DNA from: Candidatus Omnitrophota bacterium
Lineage (GTDB): Bacteria; Omnitrophota; Gorgyraeia; B26-G9
Direction: 5' to 3'
Assembly (NCBI GenBank): GCA_043805415.1
Contig: JAZDHZ010000034.1
Coordinates: 37,478-101,477, forward strand
Length of the DNA: 64,000 nt
Part shown: piece after piece, positions 8,254 through 64,000 of the stretch
Layout: every line of letters starts with the position of its first letter
How positions within the stretch are numbered: the first letter of the stretch is position 1
Notes under the pieces: generated by a model
The model's database searches: none
What the model was told of the DNA's origin: nothing
The model's input: the letters and a program-made list of their open reading frames with translations, nothing else
Position numbers and translations under genes: made by a program

Positions 8254-8350
8254 ACTAAACAGCAGACAGTAGTAAATACGCGAGATGTTGTAAAGTTGCT
8301 TATTTGCTGCTGTCTGTTTTATGCTTTTTAATATTGTTAAGGATAAAAAA

Positions 8351-9493
8351 ATGACCAATCGCGATTATTATGAAATATTAGGTGTTAGCAAGGGCGCTGA
8401 AGTTGGCGAAATAAAAAAGAGTTATCGACAACTGGCAATGAAATATCATCCTGACCGTGTTGCTCCTGAAAAACGCAAAGAATCTGAAGAGAAGTTTAAG
8501 GAAATATCAGAAGCTTATGCCGTGCTTTCCGATGCCAATAAACGCGCTCAATATGATCGGTTTGGTCATGCCGGCATAAACAATCAATATAGTTCGGAAG
8601 ATATATTCCGGGGAGCTGATTTTGGCTCAATCTTTGAAGAAATGGGTTTTGGCGGAGGAATTTTTGATGAACTGTTTTCCGGAGGCAGAGGCGGCGGGAG
8701 CCGGCGTTCGCAAAAAGGGCCAAGGCGGGGCGCGGATCTTGAATATCAGCTTGAGATCAGTTTTGAAGAAGCTGCTTTGGGAATTGAAAAAACCATATCA
8801 ATTAAGCGGGGCGAAACATGTACTGAATGCCAAGGTGAAGGCGCTGCTCCGGGCACAAAAAAAATCACCTGCCCAGCATGTAAAGGCAGCGGACAAATAG
8901 GACAGTCAGCGGGATTTTTTACCATCGCGAGAACCTGCGATAGCTGTCATGGCCAAGGCCAGATAATAACAACCCCCTGTAAAAAATGCCGCGGCATGGG
9001 CAAAGTTTCCATGGACCGGAAAATCAATGTTAAAATTCCCGCGGGAGTAGACAATGGCTCGCATCTGCGTGTGCGCTCAGAAGGCGAAGCCGGTGATAAA
9101 AATGGACCGCATGGTGATCTGTATATTTTAATTCACCTTAAAAAACATGAAACTTTCGAACGGCATAACGCGGATATATATTGCACAGTGCCGATTAGTT
9201 TTGTCGCAGCTGTGCTGGGCACAGAGATTGAAGTGCCTACGCTTTATGAATCTAAAATTAAAATGAAAATACCGCCAGGAACACAAACGGAAAAGATATT
9301 CAGAGTTACCGGAAAAGGTTTTGCCGATATCCGCGGTCATGGTAAAGGTGATCAATATGTAAAAGTTAGGGTTCAGGTACCAACAAACCTTAATCCCAGC
9401 CAGAAGAAATCCTTACTTGAATTCGCAAAGCTCACAGGCGAGGAAATAACAAACGAATCTATATCCCAAAAAATTAAAAAAGCGTTCAAATAA
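8351..9493 (+). CDS. dnaJ: co-chaperone DnaJ
   Basis: It has a J domain with HPD, a Gly/Phe-rich linker and four CxxCxGxG zinc-finger repeats. The likely start is the MTNRDYYEILGV Met. Confidence 0.9.
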   Translation: MTNRDYYEILGVSKGAEVGEIKKSYRQLAMKYHPDRVAPEKRKESEEKFKEISEAYAVLSDANKRAQYDRFGHAGINNQYSSEDIFRGADFGSIFEEMGFGGGIFDELFSGGRGGGSRRSQKGPRRGADLEYQLEISFEEAALGIEKTISIKRGETCTECQGEGAAPGTKKITCPACKGSGQIGQSAGFFTIARTCDSCHGQGQIITTPCKKCRGMGKVSMDRKINVKIPAGVDNGSHLRVRSEGEAGDKNGPHGDLYILIHLKKHETFERHNADIYCTVPISFVAAVLGTEIEVPTLYESKIKMKIPPGTQTEKIFRVTGKGFADIRGHGKGDQYVKVRVQVPTNLNPSQKKSLLEFAKLTGEEITNESISQKIKKAFK

Positions 9494-12807: not shown

Positions 12808-12843
12808 ATTAGCTAATAGCTGATGGCTCATAGCTAATGGTCA
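12808..12843 (+). repeat. degenerate TAGCTAATAG/TAGCTGATGG tandem repeat with stops in all three frames
   Basis: The sequence ATTAGCTAATAGCTGATGGCTCATAGCTAATGGTCA lies immediately after the HD gene stop. The same family occurs at 12951-12973, 13239-13284 (inverted), 32179-32211 and 39335-39381. Confidence 0.6.
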
Positions 12844-13238
12844 AAAGCAGAGAACAGAAAACGGAAGACATAAAACAAATTACTAATTACTAATTTCTAA
12901 ACTCTAAATAAACTCAAATGACTAAAGCCGAAAACACAGAAAGAGCACTTGGCTAATAGCCGATAGTCAATGGTTTGGCAAAAATTCTCTTTGAGCGGCG
13001 CTTTCGAACGTAATTTTGACATGGAGGGCAAAATAGTGAGAACGCGCGGCTGAGACTGCACGATGCAGACTCAGGCTTAGCGAAAAGACGTGTTTTTGCC
13101 GGTAACCAGTTACGTGAGCAGCGATTAGGAAAAGCAAGAAGACAGAAAACAGAAAAAAGCAGCGAATCGGGATTAGGACTTAGGAATTGCAATTGTCCTG
13201 TGACCTTGTGACTGGTGACCTTGTGACCGAAAGTTTTT

Positions 13239-32178: not shown

Positions 32179-32211
32179 TAGCTCATAGCTGATAGCTCAT
32201 GGCTCATAGCA
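32179..32211 (+). repeat. degenerate TAGCTCATAG/TAGCTGATAG repeat (three-frame stop family)
   Basis: TTAGCTCATAGCTGATAGCTCATGGCTCATAGC starts 10 nt after the cutA stop. Confidence 0.6.
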
Positions 32212-32260
32212 AAAGCAAAAAAACAAAATAAAGTATAAAGTTGAAAACGCGATAAAGTAA

Positions 32261-47327: not shown

Positions 47328-47439
47328 TCACCATGGATAAATAAATGAATATAAAACAAAATCCCGTAGGGCCAGGTCGAGACCTGGCCGAAACATAATC
47401 AAAAAATATGGCCGAAACAAATAAATTAGAAGAAGTAAA

Positions 47440-47450: not shown

Positions 47451-47580
47451 TATTTAATTGAGAGAGTGGCGTTCCTCCGTCGTGCTTGTTCCTCGGTTTA
47501 TAAGGCGGGGCTATCCGTTTCTAAACCAAAGAAAATTAGATCACTTGGTTTTGAAGATGGATAACGTTGCGTGTTTACTC

Positions 47581-47625
47581 GTGAGCGGGGACGTTGTTTG
47601 ATAAATTGATTTATTTAAATAGTGA
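47581..47625 (+). repeat. 45-bp perfect direct repeat copy 1 (GTGAGCGGGGACGTTGTTTGATAAATTGATTTATTTAAATAGTGA)
   Basis: It is identical to 48463-48507. Similarity continues for a further ~40 nt (AAGGGGAYGGTT..TTTTTGG). Confidence 0.9.
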
Positions 47626-47742
47626 AAAAACTAAAAGGAATAAAGGGGATGGTTTTGTTTTTGGTAAACCATAAAATTTGCTTCCCGCATAAATCGGCGG
47701 GGCAAGCTGTTTGCCCTTCGACAAACTCAGGGTAAAAGCGCA

Positions 47743-47748
47743 AACGTT
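47743..47748 (+). promoter_or_regulatory. weaker AAACGTT upstream motif (GCGCAAACGTTATGTGAG) 22 nt before the RDD gene start
   Basis: It shares the CAAACGTTAT core with the motifs at 57828, 58159, 59755 and 60764. Confidence 0.35.
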
Positions 47749-47769
47749 ATGTGAGAAAAAATAATAAAT

Positions 47770-48483
47770 ATGAAAAAAGACTATAAAGAAAAAATATCGC
47801 AGTATACATTGGAAGAACTTATGGATGTTTCCATTCATATTGATAAGGAAAAGTTTCCTGATAGGTATGAAATGATTATTGCGGAGATTGAAGTTAGGAA
47901 GAATCAGCCAAAGGGTAGTTCAGAAGAACAAGATAAAAAACAAAGAATTTTTGCTGGATTCTGGATTAGATTTTGGGCATATGTTTTAGACATAATCCCG
48001 GTGCTATTATTATGGGTATTTTTATATAGGTTTTATTTTCAAGCAAAATCGGTTGTTACTCTATATTATGGAGTTTTTCCTCTGGGCTGGATTGCTTACA
48101 GAATTTATTTTCATGGTAGATGGGGGCAAACACTTGGAAAAATGGCAATGAAAATAAAAGTAGTTAATGTTGACTTTGGCAAAATTGATTATTATGCTGC
48201 TTTTAAAAGAGAAATTGTTAATATATTGATTGATTTAATCACAATAATTGTTGTAGTTGCAGCAATGAAATCTATTCCTTCAGTAAACTGGCTAGTTATG
48301 CCAGAAATAGAAAAGCAAAATGTAATTTTAAGGGCAAAAGATAAAATTAGTTTTATTGGATTGTTCTGGTTATATGCTGATATTATTTGTTTATTAATTA
48401 ATAAGCAAAAACGGTCGATACACGATTTTATTGGAAGCACAATAGTTGTAAGAGAAGAAGTAGTGAGCGGGGACGTTGTTTGA
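47770..48483 (+). CDS. RDD-family membrane protein
   Basis: It has the motifs WIRFWAYVLD, GQTLGKMAMKIKVV and RSIHDFIGSTIVV, with three to four TM helices. Confidence 0.6.
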   Translation: MKKDYKEKISQYTLEELMDVSIHIDKEKFPDRYEMIIAEIEVRKNQPKGSSEEQDKKQRIFAGFWIRFWAYVLDIIPVLLLWVFLYRFYFQAKSVVTLYYGVFPLGWIAYRIYFHGRWGQTLGKMAMKIKVVNVDFGKIDYYAAFKREIVNILIDLITIIVVVAAMKSIPSVNWLVMPEIEKQNVILRAKDKISFIGLFWLYADIICLLINKQKRSIHDFIGSTIVVREEVVSGDVV

Positions 48484-48507
48484 TAAATTGATTTATTTAA
48501 ATAGTGA
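48463..48507 (+). repeat. 45-bp perfect direct repeat copy 2, overlapping the last 7 codons of the RDD gene
   Basis: It is identical to 47581-47625. It encodes the ..VVSGDVV* tail of the RDD gene. Confidence 0.9.
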
Positions 48508-48580
48508 TTTTAAGGGGACGGTTATATTTTTTTGGAATAAATATATATATTTATTCATTCCAAACAAGAAGGAGAGCAAA

Positions 48581-49027
48581 ATGAAGAAGGTGATAGGTTT
48601 TATGGTCACAGTATTAGTGTTGGCAACGGGCATCGCATATGCTGCCATAGAAGAATATTATGAAGAAAAACCTTTAAAGATTCAGAAAGCTGACCCTTTT
48701 GATAATGACAAACAAATAAAAATTCGAGTGGGCGAAAAGATCATATTCAAAATCAAGATATATCAGGATGAATTCTTTGGCCAGACTACTATTAGTGCAA
48801 ATGCTAATATTGACAATACAACCAAACAGAAAGTCAAAGCCATCTATTCAATCTCGTTTCATGATAAGGATGGCAAGCTTGTCGCATGTCACCAGGGATC
48901 ATGGGACCTCGATGAAAATGATGATGTAAATTACGGAAGTGGCATTATCTACACAGATACCGCTTCGATTGCATCAGTTACAAATTACAAATTAAAAACA
49001 CAGGTGATTGAATCTAAAAAGGAATGA
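48581..49027 (+). CDS. small secreted protein of unknown function
   Basis: It has an AAGGAG RBS and a signal peptide (MKKVIGFMVTVLVLATGIAYA). The tracked ORF is longer, but the upstream part covers repeat DNA. Confidence 0.35.
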   Translation: MKKVIGFMVTVLVLATGIAYAAIEEYYEEKPLKIQKADPFDNDKQIKIRVGEKIIFKIKIYQDEFFGQTTISANANIDNTTKQKVKAIYSISFHDKDGKLVACHQGSWDLDENDDVNYGSGIIYTDTASIASVTNYKLKTQVIESKKE

Positions 49028-49098
49028 CCAAAAAAAGTGTAAATGGAGTCAGGTCTTGAATCTAGATAATGGACGAAAAAAGCAAAAAAAGGGGAAAA

Positions 49099-49151: not shown

Positions 49152-49230
49152 ACAAGTAAAATTTATTGAGAAAGAGTGGAAGGCTAGGGGACGTAGTGAG
49201 CTAACCCGGGATTGACGGACACCAAGAAAA

Positions 49231-49268
49231 GGGGTCAAGTCTGTAATCTTGATATTTTTATAAACGTT
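49231..49268 (+). repeat. GGGGTCAAGTCTGTAATCTTGATATTTTTATAAACGTTTGACAC element
   Basis: It belongs to the GGGGTCAAGTCT family. It contains an AAACGTT core 43 nt upstream of the ATG at 49311. Confidence 0.7.
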
Positions 49269-49896: not shown

Positions 49897-49965
49897 GGGA
49901 CGGTTCCATTTTCGGTGAAAGATAAGGGGTCAAGTCTCTAATCCTGACATTTTTAACGCTTAATG
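49897..49965 (+). repeat. composite repeat: GGGACGGTTCCATTTTCGG + GGGGTCAAGTCTCTAATCCTGAC + AACGCTTAATGC
   Basis: See 49099. It lies 35-100 nt upstream of the ORF at 50000. Confidence 0.7.
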
Positions 49966-51202: not shown

Positions 51203-51220
51203 TAGGGTCAAATAAGAAAA

Positions 51221-51265
51221 GGGATCAAGTCTGTAATCTAGATATTTCCCTAAACGTTCAACGTT
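51221..51265 (+). repeat. GGGATCAAGTCTGTAATCTAGATATTTCCCTAAACGTTCAACGTT element
   Basis: It belongs to the GGGGTCAAGTCT family and has a doubled AACGTT core. It lies 27-40 nt upstream of the ATG at 51292. Confidence 0.7.
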
Positions 51266-52071: not shown

Positions 52072-52581
52072 GTGATGAATGAAAATCATCAAACAAATAA
52101 TAAAGGAATGTCTGATCTGGAGATAAAATCCCTTATCGTTAAACGCAATAATGATGCGCAGGAAATCGTTCGATCCCTAAATTCTCAGAGCATTATTAAT
52201 CATTTAATGAGTTCTGATCTAGCAACAAGTATGAGTATGAGTATATGGCTTGGACTGCATGATAATTTTAACTGTGCCCGAGGTCTTTTAGTTCATGTTC
52301 GATCAAAAGAATCCGAGCTAGTTTCTGATGCATATAAATCTTCGGGGGAAATTGTTGGACGATTCCGTTGTAATAACTGTGGTTTTGAGACTGGACTCGG
52401 AGTAAAATACTTTCAACAAAGGATAACCAAAGGAGAGCTTAGCTCTCCGATTAAACCTGAAGATCTTTTTCTTGGTGCAGCAGCTAGAAAATTATCGCAG
52501 CAAGTAATTGATCTACGTAGAGCACAAATTGAATCTCTTCGTTTAAAAGGATCGGACAAGGATGTTTTTCCCTCTCTCTAG
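52072..52581 (+). CDS. hypothetical protein
   Basis: This is an ORF with a GGAGA RBS. It contains an RCNNCG motif. No recognisable domain was found. Confidence 0.3.
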   Translation: MMNENHQTNNKGMSDLEIKSLIVKRNNDAQEIVRSLNSQSIINHLMSSDLATSMSMSIWLGLHDNFNCARGLLVHVRSKESELVSDAYKSSGEIVGRFRCNNCGFETGLGVKYFQQRITKGELSSPIKPEDLFLGAAARKLSQQVIDLRRAQIESLRLKGSDKDVFPSL

Positions 52582-52708
52582 GGAAAGGGGTCAAGTCTGT
52601 AATCTCAACATTTCTCTAATAGAAAGCAACGGTTAAAGGGGTTAAAAAGTGCCCGAATTATTGAGCTAGTACAACATCGCATAAAATTACAGTGGAATAG
52701 AACTAGAG
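52582..52708 (+). repeat. 127-bp perfect direct repeat, copy 1 (begins GGAAAGGGGTCAAGTCTGTAATCTCAAC)
   Basis: It is 100% identical to 57625-57751. A further shared TGAAAACTG follows a 10-bp indel. It starts right at the stop codon of the preceding ORF. Confidence 0.9.
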
Positions 52709-52783: not shown

Positions 52784-53026
52784 AGTGGAGGTCTGACCCT
52801 GAGATTTTATGGGGAGATACCGGCGACAACTAAAGAGTCGGACGCTATGAGTAAAGCGCTGAAAAATAATAACTTTAAATTTGTCGGATCAACAATTTGT
52901 TACGCGTTTATGCAGGCAGTAGGGATGGTCAATGACCATTTAACTACATGTTATAGATATAATAGAGTACCTAAGGCAAAAAAACAGCGGTTAACGGATA
53001 GGGATAGGAGAAAAATAGTTGGATGA
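52784..53026 (+). pseudogene. tag: 3' remnant (~80 codons) of DNA-3-methyladenine glycosylase I gene
   Basis: The in-frame translation ..ESDAMSKALKNNNFKFVGSTICYAFMQAVGMVNDHLTTCY.. matches the Tag C-terminus (SDALSKALKKRGFKFVGTTICYSFMQACGLVNDH). There is no N-terminal two-thirds. Its stop overlaps the treZ start. Confidence 0.7.
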
Positions 53027-54849
53027 ACAAAAAAATAGGCGCTAACTATACAAATAATAATATCTGCGAATTCTCTGTATGGGCTCCTTTAAAAGAGGAT
53101 ATCTCGCTTCATATCCTTTCTGATAAGCAAAGGATTATTCCGATGCAGAAAGACGCGGACGGATATTTTAGCGTTACTGTTGATGAAGTTGTCCCGGGTA
53201 CAAAATATCTTTTTCACCTTGAAGCTAATAGCGAGTATCCGGATCCCGCGTCATTCTATCAACCGGACGATGTAATGGGCCCTTCTTGTGTTGTTGACCA
53301 TTCGGCCTTTGTCTGGGATGATAAAAATTGGCAGGGATGCTTGGCCGCGGAAATGATTATTTATGAGCTGCATGCCGGGACATTTACGCCAGAAGGAACA
53401 TTTGATGGGATCATTACAAAGCTTTCGCATTTGCAGGATTTGGGGGTTAATACAATCGAAATCATGCCGGTGGCTCAATTTCCCGGAACAAGAAACTGGG
53501 GATATGATGGGGTTTATCCTTTCGCCGTACAAAATTCATACGGCGGCCCAGCCGGGTTAAAAAGGCTGGTTAACGAATGCCACAAACGAAAAATAAGCGT
53601 TATTCTTGACGTTGTTTATAATCATTTTGGCCCGGAAGGGAATTTCTTGCGTCAATATATGCCGTGTTTTACGGATAAATATAAAACAGCGTGGGGCGAG
53701 GCAATCAATTTTGATGATGCCTACAGTTATGGAGTTAGAGATTACTTTATTCAGAATGCTTTGTATTGGTTGGAACACTTCCACATGGACGCTTTAAGAC
53801 TGGACGCGGTTCATGGTATTTTTGATATGAGCGCGAAACATATTCTTAAAGAATTATCGGAAAAAGTGACGGAATTTTCACGATTAAAGCAAAGAAAATA
53901 TTACCTAATTGCTGAGAGTGATTTAAATGACAGACGCGTCATAGATCCTGACTCCAAAGGCGGCTATGGGCTGGACGCGCAGTGGAACGATGATTTTCAT
54001 CATTGCCTGCATACGCTTTTGACAAAAGAAAATCAGGGATATTACGAAGATTTCGGACAGGTTGAACAAATGGCTAAAGCGCTAAAACAAGGATTTGTTT
54101 ATTCGTGGGATTATTCGAAATTCCGGAAAAGATATCACGGAAGCGCATCAACAGATATTTCTGCCGGCCAGTTTGTTGTTTTTTCTCAAAACCACGATCA
54201 AATCGGCAACCGCGTGAAAGGTGAACGGCTTTCCGCGCTGGTTTCTTTTGAGGCTTTGAAAGTTGCCGCCGGGACTGTCCTTCTGTCCGCGAATATTCCT
54301 TTATTATTTATGGGAGAAGAATACGGCGAGAACGCGCCGTTTCTCTATTTCATGAGTTTTCATGATAAGCAGTTGATTGAGGCGATTCGCGCCGGGAGAA
54401 AAAAAGAGTTTGCTTCATTTAATTGGCAGGGCGAACCGGATGATCCGTACGCTGAAGAAACATTTTTAAAATCAAAATTAAAATGGGATATAATTAAGAA
54501 TGAGAAACAGCGTGTTCTGTTGGAATTTTATAAGAAATTGATTCAGATAAGAAAATCGGCCGGGAGCTTGTTTGCGAAAGCTATTCTTGAGGTCAATGCC
54601 GATGAAGAAACTAAAGTAATTTCTATAACGCGTTTACAAAAACAAGCAGGGCTTCATCTCGCGATAAATTTTCACAATAAAAATGCCGCGTATACGTCTC
54701 TAAAGCTTGAGGGACAGTGGAAAAGATTGCTTGTCTCATCGGATATTAAGTGGTTAGGGCCAGGGACAAATGTTCCGGAAAAGGCCGTCAATAACGGAGA
54801 ATTTATTTTGGAACCTTTTAGTTTAATAGTATTTGAGAAAAAACAGTGA
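53023..54849 (+). CDS. treZ: malto-oligosyltrehalose trehalohydrolase (GH13)
   Basis: It has an N-terminal CBM48-like region (FSVWAP). Catalytic regions include DVVYNHFGPEG, GFRLDAVH-like DALRLDAVHG, EEYGENAPF and QNHDQIGNR. Confidence 0.9.
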   Translation: MNKKIGANYTNNNICEFSVWAPLKEDISLHILSDKQRIIPMQKDADGYFSVTVDEVVPGTKYLFHLEANSEYPDPASFYQPDDVMGPSCVVDHSAFVWDDKNWQGCLAAEMIIYELHAGTFTPEGTFDGIITKLSHLQDLGVNTIEIMPVAQFPGTRNWGYDGVYPFAVQNSYGGPAGLKRLVNECHKRKISVILDVVYNHFGPEGNFLRQYMPCFTDKYKTAWGEAINFDDAYSYGVRDYFIQNALYWLEHFHMDALRLDAVHGIFDMSAKHILKELSEKVTEFSRLKQRKYYLIAESDLNDRRVIDPDSKGGYGLDAQWNDDFHHCLHTLLTKENQGYYEDFGQVEQMAKALKQGFVYSWDYSKFRKRYHGSASTDISAGQFVVFSQNHDQIGNRVKGERLSALVSFEALKVAAGTVLLSANIPLLFMGEEYGENAPFLYFMSFHDKQLIEAIRAGRKKEFASFNWQGEPDDPYAEETFLKSKLKWDIIKNEKQRVLLEFYKKLIQIRKSAGSLFAKAILEVNADEETKVISITRLQKQAGLHLAINFHNKNAAYTSLKLEGQWKRLLVSSDIKWLGPGTNVPEKAVNNGEFILEPFSLIVFEKKQ

Positions 54850-57617
54850 AAGTACCTATTAGCACATATCGAATTCAATTTCACGCCGGCTTTACGTTTG
54901 AATCGGCTGCCGGCATATCGCGGTATTTGAAGGATCTGGGGGTATCGCATATTTACGCGTCGCCGATTCTTCAAGCCAAGAAGGGGAGCATGCACGGTTA
55001 TGATGTTGTTGATCCCCTTCAGATCAACCCGGAATTGGGCGGAGAAGAAAAATTTAACCGGCTTATTGAGCAGGTTAGGGCTCTGAATATGGGGTGGCTT
55101 CAGGATATTGTGCCTAATCACATGGCGTTTGACAGTGAAAACAAGATGTTGATGGATGTTTTTGAGAAAGGTGAGGCGTCCCAATTTTTTGATTATTTTG
55201 ACATTAACTGGAATCATCCTTACTTAAACTTAAAAGGAAAGGCATTGACGCCTTTTTTGGGAGATTTCTACGGCAATTGTCTTAAAAAAGGTGAAATAGT
55301 TGTCGGGATAGATGAGAATGGATTTTTTATTAAGTACTATGAATTGAAATTACCGGTACTGTTATCCTCCTACGCCGGAATTCTCAGAGGATGTCTTGAT
55401 TTATTAGAACACGCGGATAATCACACGACAGACGAGGCGGATCAATTCAATCACGCGATTGGGATTTTTAAGGCTTTAAACCAGCGTGACAATCAGGCGG
55501 TGACTGTTGCCAAAGCCGGCCTTTGGCGCGTGTTTACGAAAGATAAAAGAGTTGAAAAAACTATCGCCAGTTTCCTAGAGAAAATGAATAATGGAAAAAC
55601 GGATTCATTAGACCTGCTTCACAATCTAATCTCTGATCAACTCTTTCGTCTTTCTTTCTGGAAAGTAGGTAATGATGAGTTAAATTACAGGAGGTTCTTC
55701 ACGGTCAATTCCTTGATATGTTTAAGAGTGGAAGAATTCAGCGTCTTTGATTTTCTTCATAAGCGGATATCGGAGCTTGTTAATAATGGGCAAATAGACG
55801 GTATCAGGCTGGATCATATTGACGGTTTAGATTCTCCGCTTATTTATATGCGGCGGTTGAGGGAAAAAACAGGAGACCGGTATATTGTTGTGGAAAAGAT
55901 TCTTTGTAAAGATGAGCACCTGCCCGAGAATTGGCCGGTACAAGGAACGACGGGGTATGATTTCCTGAACTATGTTAATGGGGTTTTTGTTGACGCCGCG
56001 TCTGAACGCGCGATGGAAAGAATCTATATATCGTTTAGTGGTATGCGTTTTCGGTTTGAGTCGCTTGTCGTTGAAAAAAAACGGTTATTTATGGGAAAGC
56101 ATATGGCCGGCGATATCGATAATCTCGCCCATTTATTGAAAAATATTTTGAGTGGGAACATATATGGTTCTGATTTTACAATGTATGGGTTGCGCCGGGC
56201 TTTGGTCGAAATTATGGCGCATTTTCCGGTGTACCGAACTTATGCTTCGGAACTTGGGATAAGCGAGTCAGATATGTTTTATATTAAGCAGGCGCTGGAT
56301 AGAGCCCGGAGGACAGGGCAAGACCTTTTATATGAATTAGACGCGATTGAAAAAATCCTTTCTTTGGATTCCGCGCTTAATATAAACGACGCGGAAAAGG
56401 AAAAATACCGTCATTTTACGAAAAGATTTCAGCAGTTTACCGGCGCTCTGATGGCCAAAGGCTCAGAAGACACCGCGGATTATATTTTTAACCGTTTCAT
56501 ATCGCTGAATGAAGTAGGCGGGTTTCCGGAAAAGTTTGGCCTGGCATTAGGAGATTTTCACGAATTTAATGTTAAACGACTGAAAGACTGGCCGTATTCA
56601 ATGAGCGCGACGGCAACACATGATACCAAACGGGGAGAAGATGTCAGGGCGCGGATTAATGTGCTTTCTGAAATGCCGGAAGAATGGAAAAATATCGCAA
56701 AATTATCACATAAGCAAAATAAGAAGCACAAATCGAAAATCGGTCATGAGCTCGCGCCCGGCAAAAATGATGAATATCTTATTTATCAGACGTTCATTGG
56801 CGCTTTTCCATTTAAACCAGAGGAAGCAGAAAATTTTAAGGAAAGGATGAAGCAATATATCGTTAAAGCTGTTCGTGAAGCGAAGCTTCATACGGCATGG
56901 CTGAAACCAGACACACAATATGAGGAGGCCTGCGTCAAGTTCATTGATAGAATTTTAGATTCTTCAAGTGAAAATCAATTCCTGAATAATTTTATTCCTT
57001 TTCAAAGAAAAGTAGCATATTTTGGGATGTTTAATTCTTTGTCCCAGACACTTCTTAAATTAACAGCACCGGGTATACCCGATATCTATCAAGGCAATGA
57101 ATTGTGGGATTTTAATTTGGTTGATCCTGATAACAGAAGGCCGGTTGATTTTGAGAAACGTAAGCAATTTCTTAATGAGATACAAGGTAAAGAGAACGAT
57201 TTATCACCTCTGATCAAGGAATTGCTTGCCCACAAAGAAGACGGAAGAATAAAGATGTTCACGCTCTACCGTCTTTTGAAGGCAAGAAATGAATTTAGCG
57301 AATTATTTCAGAACGGCGAATATATCCCTCTTGAGGTCAAGGGGGCATTACAAAACCACATTATTGCTTTTGCCCGCAGAAAGGACAATAGCTGTTGTGT
57401 TGTCATCGCTCCGCGATTTTTATCAAAGGTTGTTAAAGAGAATGAGTTGCCTTTGGGAGAAACGGTCTGGCAGGATACAGCGATCATTTTACCCGAAGGA
57501 TTTCCGTCAGAATGGAGAGATATCCTAACCGGGGAAAGCCAGCGAGCGGAAGGGATTATCTTTATAGGAAAGGTTTTAAAGATTCTTCCGGTCAGTTTAT
57601 TGTCTTTGCATGAATAA
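54846..57617 (+). CDS. treY: malto-oligosyltrehalose synthase (GH13)
   Basis: It has the N-terminus ISTYRIQFHAGFTF..LGVSHIYASPILQA..GSMHGYDV and DGIRLDHIDGL. Length is 923 aa. Confidence 0.9.
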   Translation: MKVPISTYRIQFHAGFTFESAAGISRYLKDLGVSHIYASPILQAKKGSMHGYDVVDPLQINPELGGEEKFNRLIEQVRALNMGWLQDIVPNHMAFDSENKMLMDVFEKGEASQFFDYFDINWNHPYLNLKGKALTPFLGDFYGNCLKKGEIVVGIDENGFFIKYYELKLPVLLSSYAGILRGCLDLLEHADNHTTDEADQFNHAIGIFKALNQRDNQAVTVAKAGLWRVFTKDKRVEKTIASFLEKMNNGKTDSLDLLHNLISDQLFRLSFWKVGNDELNYRRFFTVNSLICLRVEEFSVFDFLHKRISELVNNGQIDGIRLDHIDGLDSPLIYMRRLREKTGDRYIVVEKILCKDEHLPENWPVQGTTGYDFLNYVNGVFVDAASERAMERIYISFSGMRFRFESLVVEKKRLFMGKHMAGDIDNLAHLLKNILSGNIYGSDFTMYGLRRALVEIMAHFPVYRTYASELGISESDMFYIKQALDRARRTGQDLLYELDAIEKILSLDSALNINDAEKEKYRHFTKRFQQFTGALMAKGSEDTADYIFNRFISLNEVGGFPEKFGLALGDFHEFNVKRLKDWPYSMSATATHDTKRGEDVRARINVLSEMPEEWKNIAKLSHKQNKKHKSKIGHELAPGKNDEYLIYQTFIGAFPFKPEEAENFKERMKQYIVKAVREAKLHTAWLKPDTQYEEACVKFIDRILDSSSENQFLNNFIPFQRKVAYFGMFNSLSQTLLKLTAPGIPDIYQGNELWDFNLVDPDNRRPVDFEKRKQFLNEIQGKENDLSPLIKELLAHKEDGRIKMFTLYRLLKARNEFSELFQNGEYIPLEVKGALQNHIIAFARRKDNSCCVVIAPRFLSKVVKENELPLGETVWQDTAIILPEGFPSEWRDILTGESQRAEGIIFIGKVLKILPVSLLSLHE

Positions 57618-57624
57618 GTTTGCA

Positions 57625-57751
57625 GGAAAGGGGTCAAGTCTGTAATCTCAACATTTCTCTAATAGAAAGCAACGGTTAAAGGGGTTAAAAAGTGCCCGAA
57701 TTATTGAGCTAGTACAACATCGCATAAAATTACAGTGGAATAGAACTAGAG
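57625..57751 (+). repeat. 127-bp perfect direct repeat, copy 2
   Basis: It is identical to 52582-52708. It starts 8 nt after the treY stop. Confidence 0.9.
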
Positions 57752-57827
57752 GGTCAGGCATTGAAAACTGAAGACTAAAAACAATTGGAAATGCAGGCAA
57801 TCAAATAACGCTGTGCGTTTCTTCTGC

Positions 57828-57844
57828 CTGAGCTCAAACGTTAT
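57828..57844 (+). promoter_or_regulatory. conserved upstream motif CTGAGCTCAAACGTTAT (TGAGCTCA + AACGTT palindromes)
   Basis: It lies 19 nt upstream of the ATG at 57863, followed by an AGGAGG RBS. The same motif occurs at 58159, 59755, 60764 and, degenerate, 63257. Confidence 0.6.
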
Positions 57845-57862
57845 AACTAAGGAGGGAATATC

Positions 57863-58105
57863 ATGGCTTGTCCGATAGAAGGTAGCTGTACATTTCATAA
57901 TAATCAAATACATATGTTGGAAGAACGGAAAAAAATAATACAAGTAAGGTTTTGTCTTAGTAGTTATTCGCAATGTGCTCGTTATAAAGTATATGCATAT
58001 TTTAAATCTACACATCAGGTTCCTCCAGGTTTATACCCAAATAATTTTGAGCAAGCTAATGAACTGATCCAAAACGATAGGCGGAAACATGGCGGCGGGC
58101 ATTAA
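57863..58105 (+). CDS. small Cys-containing protein (80 aa; CPIEGSC..C..C)
   Basis: This is an ORF with a strong RBS and the conserved upstream motif. No recognisable family was found. Confidence 0.35.
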   Translation: MACPIEGSCTFHNNQIHMLEERKKIIQVRFCLSSYSQCARYKVYAYFKSTHQVPPGLYPNNFEQANELIQNDRRKHGGGH

Positions 58106-58158
58106 TTGTACTAAAACTATGTGGGAAATAAAGGGAGACAATACTTAATTACTCTGTT

Positions 58159-58174
58159 TGAGCTCAAACGTTAT
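58159..58174 (+). promoter_or_regulatory. conserved upstream motif TGAGCTCAAACGTTAT
   Basis: It lies 39 nt upstream of the ATG at 58213, followed by an AAGGAG RBS. Confidence 0.6.
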
Positions 58175-58212
58175 ATAAATTTTTCGCTAGTTAAAATAAT
58201 TTAAGGAGACAA

Positions 58213-59742
58213 ATGTTCCATATTAGGCTTATTGATCGATTCTTTGTTTTATTGATTAAGATTATTGATAAAGCGCAGGATAAGATTATCAAGAATTATG
58301 CTGTGTTTACTTTGATTGTGAGTAGGGCTCCGCAAACGGTCGGAGCGGAAGCTTGCTGGTATAGAGCAATCAAAGAATTTATGATTGCTTATAAAGATGT
58401 TCCGGCTTATAGAGAGTTTCTGAAGAAGAGTGGCTGGAAATGCGAATCCAGGGATGCTAAACGTATTTTTGAATCATTGCCTTTAATGGATAAAGCTAAT
58501 TATATTCTTCCTTATAGTACAGAGGATAGATGTCTTAACGGTAAGTTCTTTGACAAAGGGGTTGTTATTGATGAGTCTTCAGGATCAACAGGTATTCCTT
58601 ATAACTGGGTAAGAAGCCAGGAAGAAAGGGAAATTGTTAAACAGCTGATTGGGGTGTATCTGCGATACTGTTATGGTAATCAGAATTTTATTATTCTGAA
58701 TACATTCAGTATGGGAGCCTGGGCAACTGGGTTTAATATGGCTTTAGCAGCACAGTCATTGGGTGTGGTTAAGTCTACTGGTCCGGATGTGGATAAAATA
58801 TTAAGAACGCTTGAATTTTTTAGCGGTAAATATCCGTATATTCTTAATGGATATCCGCCATTTTTAAAATATCTGTTTGATGAAGGAGATAAGCGGGGAT
58901 TTAAGTGGAAAGATTATAATATCCATGTGCTTGTCGGCGGAGAAGGCATGTCCGAAGGATTAAGGGATTATCTGCTTAGGTACGCGAAGACGGTTTATTC
59001 CGGTTATGGGGCTTCTGATTTAGAGATTGGCATCGCAGGTGAGAATCCTTTGACTGTTATGATCAGGAAGTTATGCCTTAAAGATCCTGAGTTAAAAAAC
59101 ACGCTTTTTGGCGAAGATCACCGCATGCCCATGCTTTTTCAGTATAATCCTTTGGATCATTTTATTGAAATAATCCAAAAAGAAATAGTTGTGACCATAA
59201 GTAAGCCTTGGACGCTTTCTCCCAGGATAAGATATAATATCAAGGATGAAGGGGGCATGATTACTTTTGATCAGATGAAAGAAAAGCTGAAAGCGCATAA
59301 TGTTGATTTATTGGAATTGGAACTGGAATGTAAATATCCGCGTTGGTATGTACCGTTTTTATTCATATACGGCAGAAAAGACAGTACTGTATCAGTTATG
59401 GGAGCAAATATATACCCTGAGGATGTGGAAAGTGTAATATATTCAGATTTGATGCTGGCACAGAATATTAATTCATTTTCAATATCACTGGAAGAGGATA
59501 CTCAAGGCAATCCGCATCCTTGTTTTGAATTTGAATTACTGGATATAGAGCAAAAATCCCGGGTTGAAAAGAAATTAAGTGAATTAATGTCATCCGGTCT
59601 GGCTAAATTAAGTCTGGATTATAAGAAGGCTTTGGAAGAGTATCCGCAGGCACTTGAGCCGATTATCAGGATTTTTGAGTTAAATCAAGGGCCGTTTAAG
59701 GAAAATCAAAGGCGGATCAAAAGACGCTATGTTAAGAGCTAG
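58213..59742 (+). CDS. adenylate-forming enzyme of the PaaK/CapK/F390-synthetase-like (phenylacetate-CoA ligase) family
   Basis: It has the A1 motif ESSGSTGIPY (compare SSGTTGKP). The C-terminal ~509 aa match this family, with an N-terminal extension. Confidence 0.5.
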   Translation: MFHIRLIDRFFVLLIKIIDKAQDKIIKNYAVFTLIVSRAPQTVGAEACWYRAIKEFMIAYKDVPAYREFLKKSGWKCESRDAKRIFESLPLMDKANYILPYSTEDRCLNGKFFDKGVVIDESSGSTGIPYNWVRSQEEREIVKQLIGVYLRYCYGNQNFIILNTFSMGAWATGFNMALAAQSLGVVKSTGPDVDKILRTLEFFSGKYPYILNGYPPFLKYLFDEGDKRGFKWKDYNIHVLVGGEGMSEGLRDYLLRYAKTVYSGYGASDLEIGIAGENPLTVMIRKLCLKDPELKNTLFGEDHRMPMLFQYNPLDHFIEIIQKEIVVTISKPWTLSPRIRYNIKDEGGMITFDQMKEKLKAHNVDLLELELECKYPRWYVPFLFIYGRKDSTVSVMGANIYPEDVESVIYSDLMLAQNINSFSISLEEDTQGNPHPCFEFELLDIEQKSRVEKKLSELMSSGLAKLSLDYKKALEEYPQALEPIIRIFELNQGPFKENQRRIKRRYVKS

Positions 59743-59754
59743 GGTTGGATAGCT

Positions 59755-59776
59755 CTGCCTGAGCGCAAAACGTTAT
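59755..59776 (+). promoter_or_regulatory. conserved upstream motif CTGCCTGAGCGCAAAACGTTAT preceded by a stop-codon hairpin AGAGCTA-N8-TAGCTCT
   Basis: It lies 30 nt upstream of the ATG at 59806, followed by an AGGAGG RBS. Confidence 0.6.
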
Positions 59777-59805
59777 GTGTTGTATCACTTGAATAAGGAG
59801 GGGTT

Positions 59806-60690
59806 ATGTCTGTATCTTTTAATGAAGAATTAAAACAGTCTAAGGTGCAAGAAGTAGTAGGACTCCCAATCAATAAGGAAATTATTTTTTCCAATCATAA
59901 AAATGTATATAAAAAAAGAATTGAAAAACGTCAATCAAGATTATTAAAAAAAATTGCTTTTTTAAAGCCATTCTTGTCTGGTGATGAAAATATTATAATG
60001 ATTACAACTGCTTGTTCTCCGATGTCCATTACCGAGCAGTTTCTTGTTGGTTGGATGATTTTTTATCTAAAACGGTCGCTTTTAGTATTTACTAATAAGC
60101 GGATTTTCCATATTCCAACTAAAACTGATTATTCGTATAGAAATTCGATCGCGCAGATTTTTTATGAGGATTGTCAAACGATAACTGTTCGAAGTAGGAG
60201 CTTGATTTGTAAATATAAGAATAATATAAAAGAACAGTTTCATTATATTGAAAGTAGCTGCATAAAAAAAATCAAATCGCTTATAAAAGATTTGACTGGG
60301 ACTGGGGAGAACGCCAGTAAATATCATAGGCGGACACATATTTGTCCTCGTTGTGCTCATGAGCTTGAACAGAATAAATATATGTGTTTAAATTGCCAGC
60401 TTGTTTTTTTAAACAAAAAAGACTCTGATAAAATTTCTTGGATTTACCCTGGAGGTGGTTATTTTTATACAAGGCATCCATTTCTTGGTCTAGGCGATGC
60501 AATTGTACAGTTGATTCTAATTATTTGGGTTGTTGATGCTTTAGTTACTGTTATCACTAAAGGTGTTGAAACTATAGGAATTCTGGTTTTTTCCACAATT
60601 TTACTGGTATTTGAAAAACTGATGACTGTATATGAAGCAACACATTTTATCAGTGAATACATCCCTATTGAAAAAAACTTAGGGAAATAG
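59806..60690 (+). CDS. membrane protein with bacterial PH (bPH_2/YdbS-like) domain, zinc ribbon (CPRCAHE..CLNCQ) and 2 C-terminal TM helices
   Basis: ENIIMITTACSP..LLVFTNKRIFHI resembles a bPH domain. It has a CxxC..CxxC zinc ribbon and hydrophobic C-terminal segments. Confidence 0.4.
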   Translation: MSVSFNEELKQSKVQEVVGLPINKEIIFSNHKNVYKKRIEKRQSRLLKKIAFLKPFLSGDENIIMITTACSPMSITEQFLVGWMIFYLKRSLLVFTNKRIFHIPTKTDYSYRNSIAQIFYEDCQTITVRSRSLICKYKNNIKEQFHYIESSCIKKIKSLIKDLTGTGENASKYHRRTHICPRCAHELEQNKYMCLNCQLVFLNKKDSDKISWIYPGGGYFYTRHPFLGLGDAIVQLILIIWVVDALVTVITKGVETIGILVFSTILLVFEKLMTVYEATHFISEYIPIEKNLGK

Positions 60691-60763
60691 TAATTTGTGT
60701 AAATTTATAAAAAATCACTTTAGCTAACTGGAGTGCGCGCGCAAATGGAGTTCAACCCAGTAG

Positions 60764-60778
60764 CTGAGCTCAAACGTT
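60764..60778 (+). promoter_or_regulatory. conserved upstream motif CTGAGCTCAAACGTT
   Basis: It lies 45 nt upstream of the ATG at 60823. Confidence 0.55.
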
Positions 60779-60822
60779 CGGCGCGCAATAAGCATGAAAT
60801 GTCTTTGCGGTGCTAAAAGGAT

Positions 60823-61974
60823 ATGAGTATGAAAAGTATCTGTAGGTCGGGAACAGTCTGTTTATTGCTGGGTGTTTTTCTTTTTTTCAACATTTCTGAG
60901 CTAAGAGCAGAAGCACCCCAGCCCTTGTTCAATGTCGGCTATCAGGTTCTTGATCTCAAATATATAAAGGACAATCAGGAGCAAAGTCTTACTGTGGCTG
61001 TCTGGTATCCGACTGCGCAACAGCCAAAGACATACAACTACGGCGGGCCAACAAACGGCAATGTTGCTGTAGACGCAACACCTTATGCCAAAGCCGGACC
61101 ATATCCTTTATTGGTGTTTTCGCACGGGTTCGGGGGCAGTGGACTTGGCTCTATGTTTTTCACTGAGACTCTTGCTGCTCTTGGCTGGATTGTCGCCTGC
61201 CCGGATCACCATGACAAATATTCAGCTGTCCGCATCCGGACCGGACAAAATCAAAACCTCGACCGATTGGGGTTTATGAAGCAAGGCAAAGAGATAGCAT
61301 CTTCCGGCCCTGAAGACCGCGGCAAGTATTTTTACCGCCTGGATGAGATGAAGCTTGTGCTGGACGGCATGCAGGCTTCCGGCATATTCGGGCAATTGAT
61401 TGACCCAGACCGGATTGCTGTGGGCGGACATTCTTTTGGCGGATTCACGGCCTTGGGACTCTGCGGGACGATTAAGGAACGCCGCGATCTTCGTATTAAG
61501 GCTTTGCTGTTGTTTTCAACCGGTGCCGGGGGGTATCTTTACACAGAAGAGGAACTTAGCGCAGTGCGGATTCCCTGTATGCTGTTTATGGGTCAAAGAG
61601 AAGAAAAACAAAGCCGCGGCTCCCACAAAATGTCGGAGCTGTCAGCTAAGATATTTGAAAATTTATCCGGGCCGAAGTACTTCCTGGAAGTAAAGGGAGC
61701 CAGCCATTTTTCGTTTAATAATTGTTTTGCAAAAAATTTGCGGACAAAACTGCTGAGTGGCACGAAAAAGCAGTTTGAAGTTATTAGAAAATACTCGATT
61801 GCTTTTTTGGAAGAGTATATTGCAGAAAGAAAAGACTTTGGTCATTTGCTGGAACAGCGTGACCCGCTGCTTACACGCTATCTCAGGGAGCCTGTTTTAG
61901 ACGCATCCAAACAAGGTTTGGCGGACGATACCCAACCAGACGTTTCAGCGGACGAGGACAAGCCGCGTGACTAA
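60823..61974 (+). CDS. secreted alpha/beta hydrolase (dienelactone hydrolase / PAF-acetylhydrolase / PETase-like)
   Basis: It has a signal peptide, FSHGFGGSG and the nucleophile elbow GGHSFGG. Confidence 0.55.
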   Translation: MSMKSICRSGTVCLLLGVFLFFNISELRAEAPQPLFNVGYQVLDLKYIKDNQEQSLTVAVWYPTAQQPKTYNYGGPTNGNVAVDATPYAKAGPYPLLVFSHGFGGSGLGSMFFTETLAALGWIVACPDHHDKYSAVRIRTGQNQNLDRLGFMKQGKEIASSGPEDRGKYFYRLDEMKLVLDGMQASGIFGQLIDPDRIAVGGHSFGGFTALGLCGTIKERRDLRIKALLLFSTGAGGYLYTEEELSAVRIPCMLFMGQREEKQSRGSHKMSELSAKIFENLSGPKYFLEVKGASHFSFNNCFAKNLRTKLLSGTKKQFEVIRKYSIAFLEEYIAERKDFGHLLEQRDPLLTRYLREPVLDASKQGLADDTQPDVSADEDKPRD

Positions 61975-62006
61975 ACTTCACGTTAACAGAATAAATAAGG
62001 AGAAAA

Positions 62007-63206
62007 GTGGAAAAATTAAAGTTTGGAGCTTTGATTGAAAAAAGTATAGCCAGGACAAAGCAGATGCTGCTAAAGCCCTTTTCTTTTAGGAAATGGATGT
62101 GGCTGCTGTTTATCGCGTATATGGCAGGAGCCATGAGCGGAGGAACAAACCTTAATTATAATTTTAGTGGAAACAATAGTTCTGATCAGACTCAAACCGT
62201 ATCAGAGTCCGAAGACATTGCGAAAGATCCGGATCAGGCAGAGCCTAATGATGAGCCAGAATCCAAGCAGGCAACTGAAACAGATATATTTATTAGATTT
62301 GTGGCAGATAAGGATTTTAAGGCTAAAGAATTCTTCGCGGAACTTAAAAAAAAGGCAGTATCTGAAGAATTTAGACATTTTCTTTTGCCGATTGCCATCG
62401 GTGTATTTGTTTTGTTTGGGATTATAATTATTTTTACCTGGTTATACAGCAGGTTTTTATTTATCTGGTTTGAAGCTATTGTTAAAGATCAGACGGCGAT
62501 TAAAGAGCCTTTTAAGCGGTATAAGCAACAGGGTTCATCAATTTTTAAAGTATCCATCTTGATGATGTTTTTTGGGCTGATTCTCTTTGGGCTTATTGTT
62601 TTATGGATGCTTAGTATATTAAGAAGCACTGGAGTTTGCGCTGATTTTAATAACCTTAATTTTAAAGAAGTCCTTAAAGTATTGCAAGTTCCCTTAATTA
62701 CTCTTTTGGGTTGGTTTATTTTTTCTAATTTATGGGATTTTTTCCTTTCTAAGTTTATAGTTGTTTTCATGGCAGTAAAGCAAACGACTTTCTGGCCTGG
62801 GTTCAGGGAACTTATCAGAGTTCTGAGCGAACATAAAAAAGATATGTTTTTCTTTATTTTGATGTCTATTCTGCTGGGAATAGCAGTGTGGATTATATAT
62901 ATAGTAGTATTTTTAGCGGGTATTTTAATATCATTATTAATCGGGGGAGTTTGCTTGGGACTTATATATTTCATAATTGTGTTTTTGCTGAAATTAAAGG
63001 TTCTGTTTAATGTCTTAGCAATTATTTTTGCTGTGTGTTTTGCTGTATGCGTAGTTTTATTTATTACTTGTATCGGTTTGCCGTTTGCTGTGTTTTTTAA
63101 GAATTTCTTATTATATTTTATTTCAAATTTAAACTGCGGGTATACGCCAATTCCTTTGATTGAAGAGCCGGATGAGGCAAAACCGGAAAACAAAGAAGCA
63201 ATCTAA
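62007..63206 (+). CDS. polytopic membrane protein with acidic N-terminal linker
   Basis: It has a GTG start with an AAGGAG RBS and at least six hydrophobic helices in the C-terminal half. An antisense 234-aa ORF on the opposite strand was judged spurious. Confidence 0.4.
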   Translation: MEKLKFGALIEKSIARTKQMLLKPFSFRKWMWLLFIAYMAGAMSGGTNLNYNFSGNNSSDQTQTVSESEDIAKDPDQAEPNDEPESKQATETDIFIRFVADKDFKAKEFFAELKKKAVSEEFRHFLLPIAIGVFVLFGIIIIFTWLYSRFLFIWFEAIVKDQTAIKEPFKRYKQQGSSIFKVSILMMFFGLILFGLIVLWMLSILRSTGVCADFNNLNFKEVLKVLQVPLITLLGWFIFSNLWDFFLSKFIVVFMAVKQTTFWPGFRELIRVLSEHKKDMFFFILMSILLGIAVWIIYIVVFLAGILISLLIGGVCLGLIYFIIVFLLKLKVLFNVLAIIFAVCFAVCVVLFITCIGLPFAVFFKNFLLYFISNLNCGYTPIPLIEEPDEAKPENKEAI

Positions 63207-63256
63207 AAGATTAGCTGGCTAGTGACTGCGCGCGGAAGAAGCCAAGATAAATATTC

Positions 63257-63272
63257 GCGCTCAAGTGTTATG
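63257..63272 (+). promoter_or_regulatory. degenerate copy of the upstream motif (CGCGCTCAAGTGTTATG)
   Basis: It lies 25 nt upstream of the ATG at 63298. Confidence 0.4.
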
Positions 63273-63297
63273 TAAAAAAACTAAAAAAGGAAACAGA

Positions 63298-64000
63298 ATG
63301 CGGAAAATATTATTTACAATTATTTTATTACTATTTTCAGTTAATTCCTATGCGGAAAACACTTCAAAAGAGGATGACTATATTTATCCGGTAAATAGTA
63401 TGTATAAACAAGCGGTTCAAAATACTATTCAAGCCGCAATCCAAGAGCAAGGAGAAGTTCATACTGCTTTAAATGAGATTTTAGCATCAAGGTGGGCAGA
63501 TAATCAGTTGGTGTTTGACGCGATCAATAATAATAAACAGGCGATTAATCTGTTTAAACAAGCGGCATTGCAGGAAAGTAATCAGGCGATGTTTACGCAA
63601 AGACCAAAAGAGATCACATTTGATATGCCGATGTCGAGTTGCTCTAAAGAAATGCTGCTTTTTAAATTAGTGCTTGCTGAAGGACTTATGTTTGAATCAA
63701 AAGAAGAATATCCTAAAGCAATAGAGAATTATATTGCCGCAATCAGATTTATAATGCACTGTTCGCGGGAGGAATTTAAAACATTGGTTTCGCAGTTAAT
63801 GGAAAGAGCTTATTTTAATAAAGCTTATAATTGTCTTTGTAATACAATTTCAAATGATAAGTTCAACAATAAATATCATCAGGAATTGCTCAAGTATTTG
63901 AATCTGATTTATCAAGAACAGGATTTTTTTGAAAGTGCTTTTAAAACTGAATTGCTTGTTTCTAAAAGTCTGGTGAGAATGATAGGAAAAGAGCATTCAA
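63298..64000 (+). CDS. secreted hypothetical protein, 3' end outside window
   Basis: It has an AAAGGA RBS and a signal peptide (MRKILFTIILLLFSVNSYA). The frame is open to the window edge. Confidence 0.3.
   Translation, partial: MRKILFTIILLLFSVNSYAENTSKEDDYIYPVNSMYKQAVQNTIQAAIQEQGEVHTALNEILASRWADNQLVFDAINNNKQAINLFKQAALQESNQAMFTQRPKEITFDMPMSSCSKEMLLFKLVLAEGLMFESKEEYPKAIENYIAAIRFIMHCSREEFKTLVSQLMERAYFNKAYNCLCNTISNDKFNNKYHQELLKYLNLIYQEQDFFESAFKTELLVSKSLVRMIGKEHS

Follow-up and report, generated by a model that had tools for sequence, protein, structure and literature searches.

A Repeated Motif before Accessory Genes of a Candidatus Omnitrophota Chromosome: The Right-Hand End of Integron attC Sites and a Probable Decayed Cassette Array

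Introduction

The window considered here is a stretch of 64,000 nucleotides (nt) from a Candidatus Omnitrophota bacterium (assembly GCA_043805415.1, contig JAZDHZ010000034.1, positions 37,478 to 101,477), and near its end consecutive accessory genes are each preceded by a copy of a 16-nt motif, TGAGCTCAAACGTTAT. This motif belongs to integrons: YCTGNNTGAGCTCAAACGTTAT forms the right-hand end of an attC site, with CTGAGC as its L' box, TCAAAC as the unpaired 3' spacer and GTTAT as the R' core. The copies in the window are very probably the right-hand ends of attC sites that bound an old, integrase-less and decayed cassette array in the Omnitrophota chromosome. It is a known kind of element in a decayed state, and no new kind of system. 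This reading settles the identity of the motif, gives exact G|TT unit boundaries for six accessory genes and marks the region as integron-derived; in addition, it provides a documented example of cassette arrays, and of array decay, in Candidatus Omnitrophota.

The bottom strand of an attC site folds into an imperfect hairpin, in which R'' pairs with R' and L'' with L' and some bases are left extrahelical. The integron integrase (IntI) binds to the folded strand, and its cut in R' separates the G from the TT. A gene cassette runs accordingly from TT... to ...G, and its one promoterless open reading frame (ORF) begins some tens of bases past the site. In the mechanism proposed for the window, six boundaries would be former attC sites delimiting one-ORF cassettes on one strand, and the array would later have decayed, the integrase being absent from the window, the left halves eroded and the complementarity between cassettes gone.

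The Motif in Other Genomes

The exact 16-mer was scanned in one genome per species and was found at at least 119 loci of other genomes. About half of the loci listed are a textbook attC when the flanks are read, with the layout xxTAAC, a short spacer, TCGCTGCAG, a G+C-rich variable stem, C-TGAGCTCAAAC-GTTAT and then a ribosome-binding site (RBS) and a start codon within tens of bases. Among the matches listed, a simple pattern for the attC 5' half (xxTAAC-NNNTCGCTGCA) occurs 35-135 nt upstream in 53/119 loci, and a covariance model described below (R1) reports an attC at E<=0.01 in about 65 loci, many of which are arrays, such as those with more than 13 sites in 8 kb of locus L012 and with 5-6 sites in L069 and L100. 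The attC hairpins that end in the 16-mer span Proteobacteria, Planctomycetia, Nitrospirota, Desulfobacterota, Chlamydiae, Elusimicrobia and others, and in them the 16-mer always has an R''/L'' partner upstream. Furthermore, an integron integrase adjoins the array in L066 (TIGR02249, 473 bits against a cut-off of 265), and IntI homologues are also present in L112, L072, L058 and L098.

Thirty of these attC sites were aligned (alignment A1). With one base left extrahelical, the R''/R' and L''/L' helices pair in 83% of the cells of this alignment versus 75% in the shuffled one, the pairing of the L helix reaches 94%, and 9-12 double compensatory changes per pair are seen at three pairs that lie outside the 16-mer. 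Because the 16-mer thus stands in many genuine arrays with covarying helices, it makes up the L' box, the 3' spacer and the R' core in an attC class that is widespread.

The original prediction had offered three readings of the motif, namely an operator, a promoter element and the 3' core of an integron-like recombination site at cassette boundaries; the third has proved correct, and the other two, which are weighed below, have not been supported. It had also held against the third that the motif does not match the GTTRRRY core. Within the R' box, it is the GTT triplet that is conserved (Cury et al. 2016, PMC4889954). R' is GTTAT in 5/10 R' boxes of the complete Omnitrophota integron L143 and in 11/45 array attC sites chosen without regard to the 16-mer. 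The objection therefore fails, since only GTT is strongly conserved and GTTAT is common in genuine sites.

The Motif in the Window

The 16-mer is exact at 57829-57844 and 58159-58174 and has two mismatches at 60765-60780; TGAGCGCAAAACGTTAT at 59760-59776 differs from it by an inserted A and one substitution, and 63256-63271 matches it at 12/16 positions. With up to three mismatches allowed, the window has six matches versus 0.56 +/- 0.76 expected, and none of 100 shuffled sequences gets to six. The copies stand 18-42 nt 5' of consecutive start codons on the plus strand, with an AGGAG-like RBS in between, and it is the cassette anatomy described above that puts them there. Outside the array, near-matches are found only at 21173 (three mismatches) and 46446 (two mismatches), both within core coding genes, without GTT and in the number expected by chance.

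These results agree for the most part with what had been described earlier from the letters of the sequence. The five main sites (given as 57828, 58159, 59755, 60764 and 63257) are present when the sequence is read directly, as is their position just 5' of a start codon with an RBS between, and the confinement of the motif to the accessory array essentially holds. Of four weaker sites that had been proposed, two stand, 47738 with a 5'-half match at 47668 and an R1 score of 9.5 bits, and 61974 with a 5'-half match at 61930. The other two, 49262 and 51252, do not, as they have only AAACGTT in common with the motif, have no score with any model and belong to the GGGGTCAAGTCTGTAATCT repeat family. 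The two adjacent perfect palindromes noticed in the motif are real as strings but incidental, arising from the abutting L' box, spacer and R' triplet.

No Rfam family matches at gathering thresholds in the whole window, nor at E<=1 in 47-64 kb, and no tRNA genes were found in the window. A phage-related motif was ruled out, a viral collection having given just six scattered matches to the 16-mer.

The attC Sites One by One

The attC calls in the window rest on models built in this analysis, not on those of IntegronFinder. R1 is a covariance model from the 30 aligned sites of A1, run with filters off on both strands of all 64 kb; R2 is a broader model from 82 array sites, of which 45 lack the exact 16-mer; and R3 was built from the ten attC sites of L143 only and is independent of the 16-mer. 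Because R1 and R2 both carry the motif, the left half was also scored alone with a 5'-half matrix of 21 columns, which holds no information from the motif. The top matches of R1 are 60709-60778 (26.1 bits, E=1.5e-4), 57776-57846 (25.9 bits, E=1.6e-4) and 58136-58176 (18.8 bits, E=0.016), followed by 63245-63273 (14.4 bits, E=0.26) and 47669-47752 (9.5 bits, E=6), and the rest is noise. The first three, numbered 4, 1 and 2 by their order in the window, are the three best of both R1 and R2, R2 giving them E values of 0.017-0.041. In addition, the best of 128,000 positions for the 5'-half matrix is 61930 and the second-best on the plus strand is 60705, each at the correct distance upstream of a copy of the motif, and 47668 is also above background.

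Site 4 (60705-60782, +) is a full-length site and the best match in the window of all three models, with 26.1 bits for R1, 20.7 for R2 and 13.2 for R3, the last of which is not significant. Its R'' is TTATAAA, in which AAC is mutated to AAA, its R' is GTTCGGC, and bases remain extrahelical where L'' ACTTTAGCTAACTGG pairs with L' CCAGTAGCTGAGC; the crossover G|TT lies at 60776|60777. Site 1 (57776-57846, +), likewise full length, has R'' TAAAAAC (57776-57782), L'' TGCAGGC and the L'-spacer-R' end GCCTGAGCTCAAAC|GTTATAA, with G|TT at 57840|57841. It scores 25.9 bits with R1 over the full model, and its 3' half ranks 1/128,000 with the 3'-half matrix. A very short site of 41 nt (ATAAC...GTTAT) was considered here and rejected, as R1 and the homologues in L035 start the full site at 57776; R2 still favours the short form (57803-57846, 20.5 bits), and 57776 is given as the candidate left boundary.

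Site 2 (58136-58176, +) has a perfect 3' half (GTTTGAGCTCAAACGTTATAT) and a 5' half that is lost or unrecognisable, with G|TT at 58170|58171. It is scored at 18.8 bits by R1 (E=0.016) and 19.1 bits by R2 (E=0.041) and ranks third with the 3'-half matrix, and no hairpin was found (-2.3 kcal/mol, z=-0.7). Site 3 (59735-59778, +) is a remnant in which a 7-bp stem-loop, AGAGCTA...TAGCTCT, is followed by GCCTGAGCGCAAAACGTTATGT, with G|TT at 59772|59773. With the extra A removed, its 3' half scores 28.3 bits and would rank third in the window; no R''/L'' was found by R1, R2 or the 5'-half matrix. Site 5 (61930-61989, +) overlaps the 3' end of a hydrolase ORF and has a good 5' half (ACCCAAC CAGAC GTTTCAGCGG) and a diverged 3' half (CCGCGTGACTAAACTTCAC|GTTAACA), with G|TT at 61982|61983. 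Its left half ACCCAACCAGACGTTTCAGCG at 61930 lies 53 nt upstream of the weak motif at 61974 and scores 13.2 with the 5'-half matrix, and the probability that the best 5'-half match falls within 115 nt of this weak motif is about 0.0009. Site 6 (63245-63273, +) is a remnant, GCGCTCAAGTGTTATGT, with G|TT at 63267|63268, an R1 score of 14.4 bits and rank 18 with the 3'-half matrix; a possible 5' part from 63213 is similar to site 4 when compared by eye.

A weak attC-like site (47668-47752, +) precedes the RDD-family gene, with R'' ACCATAA, the 3' end AGCGCAAACGTTATGT and G|TT at 47746|47747. Beside its R1 score of 9.5 bits (E=6), it has the 5'-half match at 47668 (P ~0.03), rank 13 with the 3'-half matrix and a DNA fold of -15 kcal/mol (z=-2.3). 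The GTT triplet is present in 7/7 sites (47746, 57840, 58170, 59772, 60776, 61982 and 63267), and the R'' triplet is AAC at sites 1 and 5; in its place, sites 4 and 6 have AAA, site 2 has AAT and site 3 has AAG.

Relatives in Omnitrophota

Site 4 is 87.7% identical over 73 nt to an intact attC in L139 (1406-1483) and in the Omnitrophota locus L125, and 92-97% identical over 38-55 nt to sites in L140, L033, L138 and L141. A metagenome scan with a pattern specific for site 4 gave four loci from three contigs, each with 3-6 attC sites. Three sites of the Omnitrophota array L035 match site 1 with 85-93% identity over 40-55 nt, and this array also has a copy of the site 4 type. The relatives of sites 1 and 4 all adjoin different genes. 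The two site types of the window recur in the Omnitrophota and metagenome arrays L035, L125 and L138-L141 at 85-97% identity beside entirely different genes, as expected for lineage-specific attC families. L035 resembles the window in having partly decayed copies, whereas the relatives of site 4 still have ATAAC intact in R'' and follow the cassette rule described below, which the window does not.

A query with IntI retrieved NCBI-named integron integrases in Candidatus Omnitrophota, and one of these organisms provides a complete integron. This is L143 1-9223 (GCA_043813255.1, JBDRLG010000006.1), from another Candidatus Omnitrophota metagenome-assembled genome (MAG), with an intI of 434 aa at 7919-9223 (+) that is divergent from the array and ten attC sites on the minus strand that separate 12 small ORFs, including HicAB and an acetyltransferase. 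L143 and the window share the phylum, the site architecture and related 3' ends (e.g., CGCTGAGCTCGGGCGTTATGG and GGTGAGCTTGAACGTTAGAG), and the placement geometry is also the same, the cassettes of L143 being small with RBS and ATG 10-45 nt after R'. Unlike the window, L143 has intI, ten well-folded attC sites and full complementarity between successive sites. The literature search found no paper describing integrons in Omnitrophota, though public annotation names integron integrases there.

As a separate observation, one and the same attC occurs at L096 475-558 (an Aenigmatarchaeota MAG) and L114 1864-1947 (an Omnitrophota MAG), and its flanks of 150 nt or more are identical too; this is either the same DNA binned twice or a very recent transfer.

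State of the Array

The cassette rule is that the variable part of R' matches the reverse complement of the next R'', and it is the trace left where cassettes have entered as circles at G|TT. In the active arrays it holds at 36/36 positions in L143, 8/8 in L139 and 8/8 in L141, that is, 52/52 in total. Since no integrase is present in 64 kb, most R''/L'' are mutated or lost and this complementarity between successive sites is gone, the array of the window is best described as a relic, and it appears CALIN-like (CALIN denoting attC clusters without an integron integrase) in the sense of Cury et al. 2016 (PMC4889954). With a CALIN it shares the R''-L''...L'-R' layout, the GTT crossover triplet, co-oriented single ORFs of 0.3-1.6 kb that start tens of bases after the site, at least two sites within 4 kb on one strand, and no intI nearby; the sites at 57776-57846, 58136-58176 and 60705-60782 are all on the plus strand within 3 kb and thus form such a cluster. 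It differs from a CALIN in that its sites are eroded, with AAC lost at 4/6 and the left halves missing in three, and in that the R'/next-R'' complementarity is gone.

The array probably descends from an Omnitrophota chromosomal integron like that of L143. In addition, judging by further remnants at 47.5-48.5 kb, the accessory region from 47.2 kb onward may be an older part of the same array; these are the weak site at 47668-47752 and one at 47561-47597, of which 48463-48507 is an exact repeat. The intact L143 and the eroded window together give a yardstick for dating or ranking decay, made of the R'/next-R'' rule and the drop in model score.

A chromosomal precedent for lineage-specific families is offered by the Vibrio cholerae repeats (VCR), a homogeneous attC family with GTTAT-type R' boxes that occurs all along the extended chromosomal cassette array of the superintegron. 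The VCR differ in that they are about 120 nt long and highly uniform, are served by an adjacent intIA and have another sequence.

Several results weigh against an origin from a cassette array. The variable part of R' matches the reverse complement of the next R'' in the window at 8/20 positions, when 5/20 are expected by chance, and the AAC triplet is kept at just 2/6 sites. The scores of R1 and R2 for the 3' halves are partly circular, because the training sites contain the 16-mer or were found via it, and R3 has no significant match in the window; its best is site 4 with E ~1, tied with a hairpin at 8244, and site 5 ranks fourth at 11.1 bits, which is not significant (sites 4 and 5, E 1-4). 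R3 does detect attC in unrelated arrays at 22-64 bits and the intact relatives of site 4 at 22-26 bits. The bottom-strand hairpins predicted in the window are weak (z -2.0 to +0.7). Furthermore, tblastn of the verified IntI of L066 against six frames of the 64 kb gave no intI (best E 0.22), and no attI was found within the window. Finally, sites 2, 3 and 6 have near-perfect 3' halves yet no 5' half, a pattern not expected from simple neutral decay. This asymmetry, and the opposite one of site 5, would be explained by deletions on one side of an unstable palindrome.

Alternative Explanations

The asymmetry of the half-sites bears most directly on an alternative in which the sites are of attC origin but the L'-R' half is now selected as part of a 5' untranslated region, promoter or operator. 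If this were true, decayed arrays would preferentially retain the L'-R' half of attC as a cis-element, and the half-sites at 58156, 59756 and 63253 would be functional regulatory DNA of stranded cassette genes rather than debris. Such co-option would explain why near-perfect 3' halves persist where the 5' halves have vanished, sites 2, 3 and 6 keeping 16/16, 14/16 (with one indel) and 12/16 of the 16-mer without R''/L'' or a hairpin, and also why the motif always stands just upstream of RBS and start codon. Cassette anatomy, however, already accounts for that position, which L143 shows as well; none of the copies falls on a sigma-70-type -35/-10 pair, the array contains no candidate regulator gene, and at site 5 the asymmetry is the opposite one, the 5' half being good and the 3' half decayed, which fits random one-sided deletions. 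Co-option, with a secondary function of the retained half, is consequently regarded as unlikely, and a regulatory role for the three half-sites named is equally improbable.

The palindromic strings TGAGCTCA and AACGTT, recurring as they do upstream of consecutive genes, could also be taken for sites of a dimeric transcription factor that co-regulates the accessory genes. This operator reading, proposed in the original prediction, is not supported because the identical 16-mer ends attC hairpins in unrelated genomes across many phyla, to which no single regulator could be common; moreover, homologues of the downstream genes lack the motif, and 57.6-64 kb contains no helix-turn-helix or other regulator gene, so that an operator is very unlikely. 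An island-specific promoter, with the TTATAA or TTATAT after the motif as -10 hexamer, was suggested as well and has TA-rich hexamers right after GTT in some copies in its favour. These bases are, however, the variable, cassette-specific part of R', and the hexamer is not conserved, being TTCGGC at site 4 and TTAACA at site 5. There is no conserved -35 at 16-18 nt, and a sigma-70 consensus scan of 57500-63400 with that spacing gave seven matches versus 17 expected by chance and none at any copy of the motif, although Omnitrophota promoters might differ from the consensus. A promoter is thus given as little credence as an operator. An unrelated intergenic repeat of the repetitive extragenic palindrome, miniature inverted-repeat transposable element or terminator type, resembling attC by chance, might be thought of in a region that holds other repeat families (D1 and D4) and in which the hairpins are weak. 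It is the least probable explanation of all, as sites 1 and 4 align over 40-73 nt, beyond the 16-mer, with attC in arrays that obey the cassette rule, and independent 5'-half matches occur at the correct spacing. Readings as elements for extracytoplasmic function sigma factors or sigma-54, or as dif/Xer sites, were dropped informally, no conserved partner element being present at the needed spacing.

Cassette Units and Flanking Genes

With G|TT taken as the crossover for computing unit lengths, the six boundaries, which extend from 57.8 to beyond 63.3 kb, delimit five complete putative cassettes of 330-1602 bp, each with one ORF and all on the plus strand. Cassette 1 (57841-58170, 330 bp) contains an ORF of 80 aa without a Pfam match (57863-58105). 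Cassette 2 (58171-59772, 1602 bp) encodes a PaaK-like adenylate-forming enzyme, a ligase of 509 aa (58213-59742), and cassette 3 (59773-60776, 1004 bp) a protein of 294 aa with no assigned function (59806-60690). Two proteins of the window, among them the 509-aa enzyme, match NCBI proteins of a Candidatus Omnitrophota MAG at 100% identity. The alpha/beta hydrolase of 383 aa (60823-61974) is in cassette 4 (60777-61982, 1206 bp) and a DUF7544 membrane protein of 399 aa (62007-63206) in cassette 5 (61983-63267, 1285 bp). After site 6, a TPR-like ORF (63298-64000), that of cassette 6, continues past the end of the window. Upstream of the array are treZ and treY, and farther up the etfBA/acyl-CoA dehydrogenase genes. 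Pfam scans found no Phage_integrase domain in the flanking ORFs, and the layout of a complete integron, with intI, attI and a cassette promoter upstream of the array, was not found in the window.

The motif is missing near homologues (53-79% identity) of the downstream genes in eight loci of unrelated contexts. Homologues of the 509-aa ORF were seen in four contexts with no attC, and those of the 294-aa ORF in three, one of which, a Syntrophaceae contig (L136), is flanked by attC-like sites as judged by eye; R2 did not score these sites. They lie at L136 1587-1700, 2592-2780, 3621-3757 and 4505-4604 and have a different spacer, GAGTTTTTTGTTAT, and low model scores, and the homologue between them is 54% identical to the 294-aa ORF of the window.

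Other Repeats

The repeat family AAG(A)AAAGGGGTCAAGTCTGTAATCTNGAYATTT occurs at 49224-49260, 49919-49955, 51214-51250, 52580-52616 and 57623-57659, with a degenerate copy at 49041. It directly follows the stop codons of consecutive accessory genes in 49-57.6 kb, includes the GGGGTCAAGTCTGTAATCT sites and, among the fetched loci, has just one partial copy, in L035 of Omnitrophota (~4400, -). The D1 repeat (GGGGTCAAGTCTGTAATCT...AAACGTT) was considered as a second attC class and rejected, having no model score, no usable hairpin and, at 51214, no room for a 5' half. A perfect direct repeat of 127 nt, 52582-52708 and 57625-57751, brackets treZ (53023-54849) and treY (54846-57617); similarity is weaker beyond it, and a recent insertion or duplication, or else an assembly artefact, may lie behind it.

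An exact repeat of 45 nt at 47581-47625 and 48463-48507 (also 47561-47597) flanks the RDD-family gene and contains GTGAGCGGGGACG|TTG, which is alignable with the 3' half of site 1; judged by sequence, it looks like a decayed attC end that may have been duplicated together with the beginning of the unit that follows. These intergenic regions also have a second family of short repeats, AAGGGGACGGTTCYATTT, at 47438, 47643, 48512, 49097 and 49894. The ORF listed at 48476-49027 begins at a TTG inside a repeat, but the gene probably begins in fact with the ATG at 48582, in front of which stands AAGGAGAG. In addition, a hairpin-like noncoding block, CTAAACCAAAGAAAAT..ATCACTTGGTTT, is present at 47514-47556 of the window and at 4362-4320 (-) and 2722-2700 (-) of L035; the block is 93% identical between the window and this other Omnitrophota MAG and adjoins attC-type sites in both.

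Elsewhere in the window, a heptamer-like tract, TAGCTCATAGCTGATAGCTCATGGCTCATAGC, follows two core genes (32181-32228 and 12812-12861) and is 84-86% identical to a tract at 1381-1429 of L138, where, as in L038 and L140, it is part of a long variable attC stem. Finally, dnaK is split into the overlapping frames 6368-6679 and 6598-8253 (HSP70 profile 1-71 and 102-598), a frameshift that is either a sequencing error or the mark of a pseudogene.

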